Source: an uncultured bacterium
GTDB taxonomy: Bacteria > Krumholzibacteriota > Krumholzibacteriia > LZORAL124-64-63
NCBI GenBank assembly: GCA_963727525.1
Contig: CAVSGO010000007.1
Span: forward strand, 1,824,001 to 1,888,000
Reading direction: 5' to 3'
Length of the DNA: 64,000 nucleotides
Shown: positions 1 to 4,059 of the stretch, one piece after another
Layout: each line of letters opens with the position of its first letter
Position numbering within the stretch: the first letter of the stretch is position 1
Position numbers and translations under genes: made by a program
Notes under the pieces: model-generated
Told to the model about the DNA's origin: nothing
Seen by the model: the letters and a program-made list of their open reading frames with translations, nothing else
Database searches by the model: none

Positions 1-1298
1 CCGTCCTGCGTGCCGTGGCACGACACGGTGCAGCTCTGGCCGTCCGGCACCGTTGTCTGCGCCGTCCACCGCTGGATGTTGTGCGGCGACGTGTAGACCC
101 AGGTGGGACGGTCCAGGTAATTGGTCAGCGTCAGCCCCCAGTCGGCGAACGTATCCGGATCGACCGGCACGTGCCGCACGAGCGCGTAGTCATACCCGGT
201 ACGATACGGGCTGGGGTTGCGCGCGATCTTGAGCTGCAGCACGCTGGGATCGATGTCCGACTTCAGCACGCCCTCGTCGCCGAGGTTGTGGCAGTTCGTG
301 CAGTTCTTGTAGGGCTGCGAGTGACAGACCTGGCACTGCAAGCTCTTCCCCGGGCTGTTCACGTGTATCGAGTGGTAGGTGTTCGACGGCAGGGTGCCGT
401 GGCAGCTCGCGTCCTCGCAACGCGGCATCGTGGCCACCTCGTAGCGGGCCACGTAGTGCGCACCGGTGTGCTGGTTGTCGCCGTGGATCTCTTCCTTGGT
501 GTGGCAACCCTGGCACTGCATGCCGTTGGTGCGGTGAACGTCGGCCACGTTGCCCGCCAGCTCGCCCTTGAAGTCGGCGCCGATGCGGCTGCCGTGACAG
601 GCGGTGCACTGCTCGTTCATGTCGGGCGTGGCCCGGAAACGGTGCGAGTAGTACGAGCCGATCTTCGGGAAGCCGCCGCCCACGCTGGCGGGTCGGCTGA
701 TATGGCACTGGCCGCAGGTCGTGTGGCAACCGCCGCAACGTACCTCGTAGGCACCCTCGAAAGCCGAACCCTCGAAGGTGCAGCCGCAGCGCGCGGAGAT
801 GGTGGCTTTCTCGCCCCACAGGTTGGTGTGCAGGCTGTTGGCGTTGGCCGCCGCTTCGGTGGCATGGCAGCCATCGCAGGCGCCGGTGGCGCTCGGATCG
901 GATGTCAATCCCACGTGCGCCTCGGCCATCGTCGTGAACGTGCTGTCGGCCGCGCCGCCGTGGCAATCCTGGCAAGCGATCTGTCCGTGCACGCTGGAGA
1001 GGAACTGGTTTCCGTTGCTGCCGGTGATGATGACCTTTTCCCAAGCTTCCAGCTCGGGCACCTCGCCACCTCAGCCATCGTCCTTGTTGTAATCCGTATG
1101 CGCGACCTTGGTCGTAACACCGAGCGCGTCCTTGAGCATGGTCTCGTTCGCGTGGCAGCCGAGACAGGTCTTGTCCGTGGTCGTGTCGCCGCCGCCGCCA
1201 CCGGGATCGGTGGGGCCGCCGTCGTCGCTGCCGCCGCAGCCCCAGACCGCTACCAGAAGCAGCGCCGGCAAGAGTCTGCGAATGCCGTGTATCTTCAT
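1..1298 (-). CDS. Selenocysteine-containing multiheme c-type cytochrome lipoprotein (3' end beyond window)
   Basis: Manual translation from ATG 1298 (GGAG RBS): lipobox VWGC, then CLGCH, then in-frame TGA at 1073-1071 in DDG-U-GGEVPELEAWEKV. The frame stays open to base 1 with CQDCH, CDGCH, CGGCH, CGQCH, CTACH, CQGCH, CEDASCH, CQVCH, CTNCH and CTVSCH. A SECIS-like hairpin follows the TGA. Confidence 0.85.
1040..1058 (-). promoter_or_regulatory. Putative bacterial SECIS element
   Basis: CCCGAGC-UGGAA-GCUUGGG stem-loop starting 12 nt 3' of the in-frame UGA, with G in the apical loop. Confidence 0.7.
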
Positions 1299-1317
1299 GG
1301 CCACTCCCATGGTTGCG

Positions 1318-1938
1318 CTACGGCGTTTCCACCGCAGCATCCGTACGTAATCCGCGAGCAAAGATCGGAACCGTATTGCAATAGACGTCGCGCGCGACGA
1401 ACTCCGGGCAGCTCATCACGCGCTCCCAGACGCCGAAATTCAGCGCGCAGTCCATGGCCATACCCACGAAGCAGCGGCTGGTGATGAAGGGTTCGATCGG
1501 ACGCACCTCGCCGCTGGCGATGCGCGCGTTGAGTTCTTCCGTGAGGAACCGGACGTAGGGCAGACGCACTTCCTTGAAAAGCACGTGCGCGACGTCGCCG
1601 CTCTCGAAGCTGTTGTTGACCATCAACCGCATGAGCGTGGAATCATCGAGAGTGATGGCGAGGATGTGCGCCGAGACCGCCTCGAGAAGCTGCTCCAGGC
1701 TGCCTTGACCCCGGCGTTGCGCGAGATAGCCAGCGATCTCGTGTTGCGCGGCCTTCTGCCGGATGACTGCCTCGTAGAGCGCGAGTTTGCTTGCAAAGTG
1801 ACGATAGATGGCGCCTTCCGTGATCCCGCACGCCGTGGCGACGGCGCGTACCGCCGTGCCGGCGAAACCGTGCTTCGCGAAGAGTTCGGTCGCGACCTCG
1901 AGGATCTGCTGCTTCCGATTGCCTGTGGCCTGTGGCAT
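1318..1938 (-). CDS. TetR/AcrR family transcriptional regulator
   Basis: N-terminal HTH ILEVATELFAKHGFAGTAVRAVATACGITEGAIYRHF; ends 19 bp upstream of the cytochrome start. Confidence 0.93.
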   Translation of the reverse strand: MPQATGNRKQQILEVATELFAKHGFAGTAVRAVATACGITEGAIYRHFASKLALYEAVIRQKAAQHEIAGYLAQRRGQGSLEQLLEAVSAHILAITLDDSTLMRLMVNNSFESGDVAHVLFKEVRLPYVRFLTEELNARIASGEVRPIEPFITSRCFVGMAMDCALNFGVWERVMSCPEFVARDVYCNTVPIFARGLRTDAAVETP

Positions 1939-1962: not shown

Positions 1963-2015
1963 GAGTCAGTGAACGTTTACCAACTCGACGGTAATGGCTG
2001 TGAATGTATTGTCAA
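1963..2015 (-). promoter_or_regulatory. Sigma70-type promoter with adjacent imperfect palindrome (candidate TetR operator)
   Basis: Minus-strand TTGACA (2015-2010), 16 nt, TACCGT. The palindrome GAGTCAGTGAACGTTTACCAACTC (1963-1986, 18/24 self-complementary) lies just downstream. Confidence 0.55.
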
Positions 2016-2270: not shown

Positions 2271-2834
2271 ATGTCTGATCTCTACCATCGCGACCACGCC
2301 CTCACGCTCCTGCACGAGTTCACGCACGGCGAGGCCCTGCGCCGCCATGCCTACGCCGTGGAAGCCGCCATGCGCGCGGCCGCCCGGCGCACCGATCAGG
2401 ACGAGGATTACTGGGGCGCCGTGGGCCTGCTGCACGACTTCGATTACGAGATGTATCCCGAGCCGCCGGACCATCCGCTGAAGGGGGCGGACATTCTGCG
2501 CGAGCGGGGCTACCCGGAGACGTTCGTGCGCACCATCCTCGCCCACGCCAGCTACACCGGCATACCGCGCGACAACGAATGCGCGCGCTGGCTCTTCGCG
2601 GTGGACGAGCTGTGCGGCTTCTGCATGGCCTGCGCCATGGTGCAGCCGGATCGCCTCATCGCGCAGGTCAAGCCGTCTTCAGTGCGCAAGAAGCTCAAGA
2701 AGAAGGACTTTGCCGCCAAGGTGAATCGCGAGGAGATCGCCGAGGGCGCGGCCGACCTCGGCCTCACGGTGGACGAGACGATCGTCCACGTGCTCGAGGC
2801 GCTGGTGCCCATCGGCAACACTCTTGGCCTGTGA
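2271..2834 (+). CDS. HDIG/HD-domain metal-dependent phosphohydrolase
   Basis: Motifs RHAYAVEAAM, GLLHDFDYE, ILAH and AVDELCGF; GAGG RBS. Confidence 0.88.
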   Translation: MSDLYHRDHALTLLHEFTHGEALRRHAYAVEAAMRAAARRTDQDEDYWGAVGLLHDFDYEMYPEPPDHPLKGADILRERGYPETFVRTILAHASYTGIPRDNECARWLFAVDELCGFCMACAMVQPDRLIAQVKPSSVRKKLKKKDFAAKVNREEIAEGAADLGLTVDETIVHVLEALVPIGNTLGL

Positions 2835-2859
2835 GGCGGGCCGCGGCCATGGTGAACTC

Positions 2860-4059
2860 ATGACGCCATCGATTCCCACCGTCACCGTCACGGTGGACGC
2901 GCTGCGCGACCGCCTCGCCGCGCTCTGCCCCGACCAGGCCATCGATCTCGCCGGCGCGGTGCCGCTGCCGGTCGCTCTGCCGCACCGCGAAGCCTGGCTC
3001 GACTGGGTGGCCAGTGGGCGTCACGCTGGCCTGGAGTACCTGGCGCGCGACCCCGAGGGGCGCGCCGATCCCACGCGCCGCGACCCCTGGGCCCGCGCGC
3101 TGCTCGTCTTCGCCCAGCGTTACACCGACGGCTGGCCGGCCGACGACCCCTCCGCGCGTGAAGGAATCACGGCCGGCGGGACGTGGATCGACGGTGTCGC
3201 ACGTTACGCGCGCGGCGACGACTACCACGAGGTTCTGCACGACGCCATCGCCGCGGTGCTGAGGGGACTGGCGGACACGTGGCCCGGTCTGCGCGCGCAC
3301 CCGGCCGTGGACACCGGTCCTTATCTCGAACGCGAGTACGCGCTGCTGGCCGGTCTCGGCTTCGTCGGCAAGAACACTTGCCTCATCCACGAGCGCCTGG
3401 GTTCCGGCCTGTTCCTGGGCACGGCGCTCACGAATCTCGCGATCACGGGCCTGCCCGCCGCTGATCCGGGACGCGCCGAACCCCTCTACGCCACGGCCCC
3501 GCGTCCCCATCGCGCCCGGATCGGTCCGGCCGCCGCGAGCCGTTGCGGTTCATGCACGCGCTGCCTGGAGGCCTGCCCCACCGGCGCGCTCGTCGCCCCC
3601 TACGTGATGGACGCCAACCTCTGTCTCGCCACCTGGACCATCGAGTGGAAGGGGCACGCGCCGGCCGCCGCGCGCCACCGCCAGGGGGGCATCGTCTTCG
3701 GTTGCGACATCTGCCAGGCCGTGTGCCCCTGGAACGTGCGCGCCGCGCGCCGGGCCGCCGACGGCGAGACGGAGGTGCCGCCGCCTCCACCGGCCTACGC
3801 CACCCGCGCGGACCACGCCGAGATCGCCCTCGCCGACCTGATCGTGCTCGGCCGCGATGCCTTCCGCCAGCGCTTCCGCGCCACCGCGATCTGGCGTTGC
3901 CATCCCGAGGGCCTGCGCCGCAACGTGATGGTAGCGGTGGCGAATGCCAGGCGCCGCGATCTGCGCCTCGCCCTTGGCGCGGCTGCTCAGGAAGACCCTG
4001 ACCCGGAAGCCCGGCAGGTGGCCACCTGGGCCACGGACCAGCTTGGCGAGGAGGCCTGA
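2860..4059 (+). CDS. queG: Epoxyqueuosine reductase
   Basis: YARGDDYH, VDTGPYLERE, GFVGKN, CGSCTRCLEACPTGA and FGCDICQAVCPWN. Confidence 0.92.
   Translation: MTPSIPTVTVTVDALRDRLAALCPDQAIDLAGAVPLPVALPHREAWLDWVASGRHAGLEYLARDPEGRADPTRRDPWARALLVFAQRYTDGWPADDPSAREGITAGGTWIDGVARYARGDDYHEVLHDAIAAVLRGLADTWPGLRAHPAVDTGPYLEREYALLAGLGFVGKNTCLIHERLGSGLFLGTALTNLAITGLPAADPGRAEPLYATAPRPHRARIGPAAASRCGSCTRCLEACPTGALVAPYVMDANLCLATWTIEWKGHAPAAARHRQGGIVFGCDICQAVCPWNVRAARRAADGETEVPPPPPAYATRADHAEIALADLIVLGRDAFRQRFRATAIWRCHPEGLRRNVMVAVANARRRDLRLALGAAAQEDPDPEARQVATWATDQLGEEA

Follow-up and report, generated by a model that had tools for sequence, protein, structure and literature searches.

Multihaem selenoenzymes reached the literature only in 2026, through MccSep of Geobacter sulfurreducens (ExtKL, GSU2937-2936, NF040886), a pentahaem, tetrameric reductase of polysulfide (and selenite) (Mihara et al., Sci Adv 2026, PMC13510729). 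The selenocysteine (Sec, U) of MccSep is carried by a D-G-U-P loop of its C-terminal immunoglobulin (Ig)-like domain and lies beside a His/Cys-ligated haem, and the references of that paper include work on ExtH, a rhodanese-like lipoprotein (PMC13510729). Here we describe a gene from an uncultured bacterium of the Krumholzibacteriota that encodes a lipoprotein cytochrome c with eleven haem motifs and that is interrupted by an in-frame UGA, very probably a Sec codon. The gene is read on the minus strand at the left edge of the window, by which we mean the whole 64,000-nucleotide stretch analysed (assembly GCA_963727525.1, contig CAVSGO010000007.1, positions 1,824,001 to 1,888,000). It would represent a second family, unrelated to MccSep at the family level, that combines Sec, c-type haem and a rhodanese partner on a tetrathionate-reductase fold.

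MccSep and the cytochrome of the window are alike in design. Both are exported multihaem c-type cytochromes with an in-frame UGA at which gene callers halve the gene, and both carry Sec in a D-G-U loop outside any CXXCH motif. MccSep, however, has five haems, forms a soluble tetramer and bears its Sec in the C-terminal part, whereas the Sec undecahaem family has eleven motifs, a lipoprotein anchor and Sec in an N-terminal extension. MccSep also possesses a conserved haem-ligating Cys, while the Sec undecahaem family is without an invariant haem-ligating Cys. A search of the genome with NF040886 gave no match above the cut-off. Five loci of MccSep homologues from the same bacterial class exceed this cut-off, with one TGA each, and four of them were combined in a profile. 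Comparison with these four by hhalign gave 31% over 64 columns, covering one haem-motif stretch, and the Sec sites did not align. Membership of the MccSep family was ruled out on this comparison and on the lack of any NCBIfam match of the protein at E-values up to 1, and from their sequences the two families are not demonstrably related.

TsdA and SoxAX, whose His/Cys-ligated haems perform thiosulfate oxidation (PMC13510729), likewise place a chalcogen nucleophile at a c-type haem for S-S chemistry (as summarised in PMC13510729), but they are dihaem proteins of another fold that use Cys in place of Sec, and our searches returned no sequence relation. The selenoprotein table of a 2026 review has ExtKL, the GSU2204 family and forms of octahaem tetrathionate reductase (OTR) among its haem and cytochrome entries (PMC13188914); the Sec undecahaem family fits none of the ExtKL, GSU2204-family or OTR models (NCBIfam, E-value up to 1). 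Data S1 of the MccSep paper includes entries from Krumholzibacteriota, one row of which is of the pentahaem HGIPDGUPTPNR type (PMC13510729). A literature search for the family, in which some sources were represented by excerpts, returned MccSep/ExtKL and, as catalogue entries, ExtKL, OTR and the GSU2204 family, but no printed description.

The in-frame UGA and its conservation

Residue numbers count from ATG 1310 (475 amino acids) unless stated otherwise, and coordinates refer to the window, minus strand. An open reading frame (ORF) of 96 amino acids starts with TTG at 1361 and ends at the TGA at 1073-1071. Beyond this TGA the same frame stays open for 353 codons to window base 3, in line with the first-pass annotation, which had put the continuation at more than 350 codons. 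In the whole-genome sequence the last 39 codons lie to the left of the window and the stop codon is found at G000:C7:1823883-1823885, 115-117 nucleotides (nt) outside. The read-through product has 475 amino acids from ATG 1310 and 471 from ATG 1298. Judged by existing gene calls, ATG 1298 is the likelier start, because the database entry P0192 (75 residues), the upstream piece that public gene callers began at the second ATG, is exactly residues 5-79. Sec is thus residue 80 counted from ATG 1310 and residue 76 counted from ATG 1298, the number under which it had first been noticed, and stands in the context D-G-U-G-G-E-V-P-E-L-E-A-W-E-K-V between haem motifs 1 and 2, outside any CXXCH. The protein opens with the lipobox LVAVWG-C and contains nine CXXCH motifs, one CX4CH motif (CEDASCH, at a place where relatives show CEDCH) and one CX3CH motif (CTVSCH). 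The original description as a lipoprotein with at least nine CXXCH motifs therefore holds, with two variant motifs to be added. The features of the gene up to the hairpin that follows the TGA, a candidate selenocysteine insertion sequence (SECIS), are:

1..1298, minus strand: putative Sec undecahaem lipoprotein cytochrome c gene, window part; it extends 117 nt left to G000:C7:1823883 and has an alternative ATG at 1310
1236..1298, minus strand: predicted signal peptide with lipobox LVAVWG-C
1152..1166, minus strand: haem motif 1, CLGCH, the sole haem motif before the TGA
1071..1073, minus strand: in-frame TGA, motif D-G-U-G-G; TGA in 62 of 63 loci, TGG in 1, Cys in 5 distant homologues
1040..1058, minus strand: SECIS-like hairpin with an 8-bp stem and a GGA loop, beginning 12 nt past the TGA

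To follow the UGA through the family, we searched 41 related genomes and found the gene in 18, with a single TGA inside the match in 15 of these. Species-representative genomes, when scanned, contributed a further 51 named loci from metagenome-assembled genomes (MAGs). In all, 63 loci from different species genomes were compared. Their MAG labels are mainly Krumholzibacteriia and also include three Chloroflexota and one Desulfovibrionaceae. The codon at the Sec column is TGA in 62 of the 63 loci and TGG in one. Both flanks of the UGA are conserved ([D/E]G-U-GG-x-V-P-x-LEAWEKV), and in 62 loci neither the frame nor the spacing over the TGA varies. Cys occupies the column, with the following G-G retained, in five of 19 distant full-length database homologues (P0123, P0127, P0159, P0160 and P0188). 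The alignment of homologues at U76 that had been proposed as a check on the Sec assignment consequently yields UGA in nearly all loci and Cys in a part of the distant proteins. Signal peptide and lipobox are confined to the piece upstream of the TGA; a lipobox-like N-terminus was recognised by pattern in 44 of 54 related loci and by eye in the remaining 10. Multihaem c-type cytochromes need export. Unsplit full-length homologues are also found in the database, and many relatives have GTA, GTT or GTC where gene finders begin the downstream ORF, which makes a second-ORF start impossible there. In one MAG labelled Latescibacteria (L060:4070-4334) the cytochrome matches fall in two overlapping frames, indicating a frameshift or an assembly error. 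A short list of residues co-varying with the presence of Sec was confounded by relatedness and was set aside.

A SECIS-like hairpin had been reported 12 nt downstream of the TGA. It is present at window 1058-1040, with the sequence CCCGAGCU-GGA-AGCUUGGG, and shows compensatory changes among relatives. Its fold alone only mildly beats shuffled sequences (z -1.79; 10 of 200 shuffles equal it). Across 46 distinct sequences, 95.7% of cells are paired; sliding the 3' arm lowers this to 17.7-50.3%. One stem pair is C-G in 23 sequences and A-U in 21, and neither the pairing nor the covariation seen here is reached by any of 500 shuffles. A tree of 45 rows, computed from the remainder of the protein, places at least 7 switches between C-G and A-U, of which 4 fall on well supported branches, and none is left uncompensated; the sign test on these switches gives p 0.125, 4 pairs being too few to reach significance. 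The switch links a change between Glu GAG and Ala/Pro/Thr xCG to a synonymous change in the third base of Ala (GCU vs GCG). The Chloroflexota loci L063 and L065 contain a different, perfect hairpin in a shifted register. Because it is both conserved and covarying, the hairpin goes beyond what chance would produce, and these comparisons indicate that it is under selection as RNA.

The genome encodes the components for Sec insertion whose presence had been suggested as a further check, namely selA (388.8 bits), selB (302.2 bits, curated cut-off 242), selD (365.2 bits) and a tRNA-Sec with anticodon TCA. The selD gene (G000:C8:225636-226547) holds an in-frame TGA of its own, so that SelD itself would be a selenoprotein. 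Considering conservation, hairpin and machinery, we find it very likely that the UGA of the cytochrome gene is decoded as selenocysteine and that the gene yields one exported product.

Standard pipelines were expected to split such a gene, and this is what is seen in the databases. Among the 120 top-ranking homologue clusters, 114 cover 59-83% of the query and begin right after the UGA, and the product called for the window itself is the 392-residue downstream piece, P0003. Source names given to family members are 'hypothetical protein' or 'thiosulfate/3-mercaptopyruvate sulfurtransferase', and the sulfurtransferase naming is wrong. Misnaming and non-annotation arise because the UGA cuts the members in two. 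More than 1000 database proteins match the family, which is widespread yet unannotated. Recognising it would correct the annotation of many genomes, enlarge the prokaryotic selenoproteome by one family and provide a candidate for S or Se respiration in the phyla of its hosts, which to our knowledge are without cultured members.

Relationship to octahaem tetrathionate reductase

OTR (Shewanella oneidensis, PDB 1SP3, TIGR04315), a multihaem enzyme with catalytic activity on S-S compounds, shares its core fold with the cytochrome. Searches starting from the protein sequence returned no match in NCBIfam at E-values up to 1 (TIGR04315 and NF040886 included), sub-threshold multihaem matches only in Pfam, and one marginal match only in the PDB (E 0.97); a PDB search with the family profile gave generic multihaem matches only. 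An AlphaFold2 model built from a 44-row alignment is confident as a whole, with a predicted local distance difference test score (pLDDT) of 84.5 and a predicted template modelling score (pTM) of 0.81. Foldseek found no match to this model in the PDB at E-values up to 0.001. With VIA-align and 48,161 representative chains, the model matched 1sp3_A with Z 8.7 and a root-mean-square deviation of 4.2 Å over 272 aligned residues (model residues 105-475), and the next-best match had Z 3.8. We further formed an OTR profile from eight true TIGR04315 proteins of relatives, to which hhalign aligned the cytochrome family with a probability of 97.3% and an E-value of 2.4e-11. Haem motifs 3-9 of the Sec cytochrome are in register with OTR motifs 1-7. 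Profile and model comparisons thus agree in marking the cytochrome core as a remote OTR relative, with the following positions in the window:

306..881, minus strand: OTR-homologous core, residues 144-335, from hhalign and VIA-align
723..737, minus strand: haem motif 4, CGGCH (C192-H196), paired with OTR haem motif 2 in the profile alignment

Compared with OTR, the Sec cytochrome has three extra haems. It adds an N-terminal extension that bears the Sec loop and the first two haems, an inserted haem motif 10 and a lipid anchor. The OTR set possesses an invariant K76 and C84, eight residues apart, which are aligned to a gap in the Sec family in a stretch of low confidence. Near this segment the Sec family has a nearly invariant R174 and a frequent, not universal, C177. 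We take the spacing of K76 and C84 to be that of the Lys56 haem ligand and Cys64 in Shewanella OTR, and OTR haem motif 2, the counterpart of motif 4 (C192-H196), to be the Lys-ligated catalytic haem. Conserved His residues outside the motifs number ten while haem motifs number eleven, so that one haem lacks an obvious His partner. This count fits a Sec-ligated or open catalytic haem. C175 and C177 were considered as a conserved haem-ligating or resolving Cys and were rejected since neither is conserved.

The only gene of this genome that TIGR04315 picks out is a separate OTR-like one (G000:C3:335099-336367); at 282 bits it stays under the cut-off of the model, and no stop codon interrupts it. 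Relatives often carry true OTR genes, with scores above this cut-off in 23 of 61 genomes. The table of the 2026 review lists GenBank-annotated Sec forms of TIGR04315 (PMC13188914).

Cassette partners and the proposed reaction

Approximately 100 nt downstream of the cytochrome gene, outside the window, lies a gene for a rhodanese lipoprotein of 621 residues (from its likely start) with the lipobox FWG-C followed by SDDD. Each of its four rhodanese domains has a Cys loop of the active-site type. The gene past the window edge, which the first-pass annotation had recommended reading, therefore encodes a four-domain rhodanese lipoprotein, a neighbour that fits the S or Se chemistry suggested there. 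A rhodanese homologue adjoins the cytochrome in 60 of the 63 loci, and the three exceptions are contig ends. Among ten longer homologues scanned for fusions, P0183 and P0190 are natural fusions of the cytochrome with two C-terminal rhodanese domains. P0183 begins directly after the Sec column, for which reason it is itself probably split at a UGA.

On the other side of the cytochrome, a TetR gene had been placed upstream, and its stop codon indeed lies 7 nt ahead of ATG 1310. A tetR homologue precedes the cytochrome in 57 of the 63 loci.

1318..1938 (or from 1944), minus strand: TetR-family regulator, Pfam TetR_N 8.7e-17
1963..1986, no strand assigned: imperfect palindrome around AACGTT upstream of tetR, candidate TetR operator

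By eye, a motif resembling GTnAACGTTnnCTnAC can be seen past a TTGACA-type box upstream of tetR in many related loci. A promoter and terminator scan of the cassette gave nothing above shuffles.

A gene for an MtrB/PioB-like barrel of 630 amino acids is located directly upstream of tetR in 44 of the 63 loci (e.g. L015:1398-3302), and PF11854 matched one of three barrel proteins tested, with 29.4 bits. At L020:203-3053, the only locus read further upstream, a gene for an MtrA-like periplasmic cytochrome with ten CXXCH motifs precedes the barrel gene. In gene order, the Sec cytochrome occupies the place of MtrC beside the conduit in those relatives. It resembles MtrC/OmcA in being a multihaem lipoprotein encoded near an MtrB-like gene and in a weak match to the MtrC/MtrF domain II/IV (PF22113). 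It differs from them in that this Pfam match stays below the cut-off (2e-5, 24.6 bits vs 30), in a VIA-align Z of only 3.7 for 6r2q_A, and in its Sec and rhodanese partner. Acidic residues follow the lipid Cys in both partners of the cassette, as C-SDDD in nearly all rhodanese proteins (L002:9780-9661 region) and as C-[E/D]-N-D-T-S-N after the lipobox of most cytochromes (here window 1236-1220). We assume that they resemble the surface-export signal of Bacteroidota lipoproteins, and by this analogy they would fit a cell-surface location.

With a probability of roughly 0.6, we read the system as a reductase that relies on Sec to act on S-S or Se compounds and that is paired with the rhodanese. 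The data above establish a single gene, a conserved UGA with a SECIS, the full Sec machinery, the remote OTR homology and the tie to rhodanese, and the UGA is very probably decoded as Sec with the aid of the hairpin 12 nt downstream. We infer where Sec sits in the active site, what the substrate is, which way the reaction runs and where in the cell it takes place as follows. The Gly-flanked, flexible Sec loop of the N-terminal extension would fill the distal side of the haem that matches the catalytic one of OTR (motif 4, C192-H196), where the Lys/Cys loop of OTR appears to have no counterpart. Sec could then act as a nucleophile on polysulfide, rhodanese-bound sulfane sulfur, tetrathionate or selenite, and the selenenyl-sulfide would be reduced via the haem chain, following the working model proposed for MccSep (PMC13510729). 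The multi-rhodanese lipoprotein would deliver or remove sulfane sulfur or selenium, while TetR would sense substrate or product and switch the cassette on. A cell-surface location of the enzyme is possible because most relatives place it behind an MtrB-like conduit, in MtrC's place. More speculatively, and in our estimate improbably, Sec80 could be the distal ligand of the OTR-type haem or lie within bonding distance of it, in a surface terminal reductase of an MtrAB conduit that would act on extracellular S0/polysulfide (or Se) and pass sulfane to a surface rhodanese. If this is true, it would be the first natural selenolate-haem centre, and uncultured Krumholzibacteriota and Chloroflexota would possess a second multihaem selenoenzyme for sulfur respiration that arose independently.

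Several observations weigh against the reductase reading or parts of it. The Sec column shows W, P, Y, L, Q, M, G, A or a gap in 14 of the 19 distant full-length homologues, so the residue at this position is not essential to every family member, and the fusion P0190 carries Tyr there. The locus with TGG, L009 (G024:C80:1-3101), sits in a genome that has selA; loss of the Sec machinery was thus ruled out as the explanation of this variant, in which the Gly flanks are altered too (D-A-W-V-G) and the hairpin is still there. The structural model loses confidence immediately ahead of Sec (mean pLDDT 53 across residues 71-80), the hhalign register around the OTR Lys/Cys loop is low in confidence, and no non-motif Cys is invariant, C175 and C177 being absent in about one third of Sec-type sequences. 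Finally, no conduit genes lie beside the cassette in this genome, and an MtrB-like porin was not found in it with two queries, the L015 protein and PF11854. In place of the conduit, two plus-strand genes of the window diverge from tetR, one for an HD-domain protein (2226-2834) and a queG-like one for an epoxyqueuosine reductase (2824-4059).

The alternatives to this reading, in descending weight, concern the role of Sec, the direction of the reaction and the decoding of the UGA. Sec might be a haem axial ligand or a redox tuner in a pure electron-transfer cytochrome, for instance the outer member of an Mtr-type conduit, with the rhodanese linkage reflecting shared regulation only. Such a role would suit the mismatch between eleven haem motifs and ten conserved His, the weak MtrC/MtrF domain match, the frequent MtrB-like gene upstream and the many homologues without Sec or Cys at the column. 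It is rendered unlikely by the near-universal pairing with rhodanese and the natural fusions, which point to chalcogen chemistry, and by the relationship of the core to a catalytic OTR. Sec is moreover costly and as a rule catalytic. The enzyme could instead run in the oxidative direction, so that thiosulfate, sulfide or rhodanese-delivered sulfane sulfur is oxidised in the manner of TsdA/SoxAX and electrons enter the chain. Thiosulfate is oxidised at the His/Cys haems of those enzymes (PMC13510729), and bifunctional TsdA enzymes are described in a passage of one study as working both ways (PMC5146829). The sequence does not fix the direction, but OTR and MccSep, which among characterised proteins come closest to it in design, both act as reductases, and the conduit of the relatives is of a type serving outward electron flow, leading us to consider oxidation doubtful. 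Mtr/Pio-type conduits are also able to run inward.

Far less probable are two explanations that dispense with Sec altogether. The UGA could be a true stop separating a 75-residue monohaem lipoprotein from a 392-residue multihaem protein, the two being coupled via a Shine-Dalgarno-like GAGGTG and a GTG four codons on. The arrangement GAGGTG-N5-GTG does follow the TGA in this genome, and gene callers predict precisely P0192 and P0003. The second piece would, however, lack a signal peptide and hence haem loading, many relatives have GTA, GTT or GTC in place of the GTG, there are full-length unsplit homologues as well as Cys forms, and a pair of separate genes sits poorly with a frame and spacing that do not vary over the TGA in 62 loci; we regard this explanation as highly improbable. 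The same applies to read-through of the UGA by a near-cognate tRNA (Trp or Cys) without the Sec machinery, even though one relative has TGG at the site and three database homologues (P0024, P0135 and P0150) have W there, possibly from callers using another genetic code. A conserved, compensated hairpin at SECIS distance, the full Sec machinery in this genome, the presence of selA also in the TGG genome and the exchange of Cys and Sec at the column, which is typical of selenoproteins, all speak against it.

Further observations on the genome and its surroundings

Contig C6 of this genome carries an Mtr-like cluster (G000:C6:104256-110719; L100 4256-10719) that encodes an MtrA-like decahaem cytochrome, an unassigned 522-amino-acid protein, an MtrC/F-like cytochrome and an 873-amino-acid fusion of a multihaem cytochrome with cytochrome b. 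This cluster could be an electron source for the Sec cytochrome. A lookup of sequencing runs returned one DNA run with a 0.05 share of words and listed no RNA run. Left of the window, the rhodanese gene is followed by a gene for a protease-like protein of 942 amino acids (L002:4912-7740, minus strand; G000:C7:1818912-1821740). Its recognisable features are a propeptide motif of the fungalysin/thermolysin type, a P domain as in proprotein convertases and, at the C-terminus, a sorting tail like those of type IX secretion.

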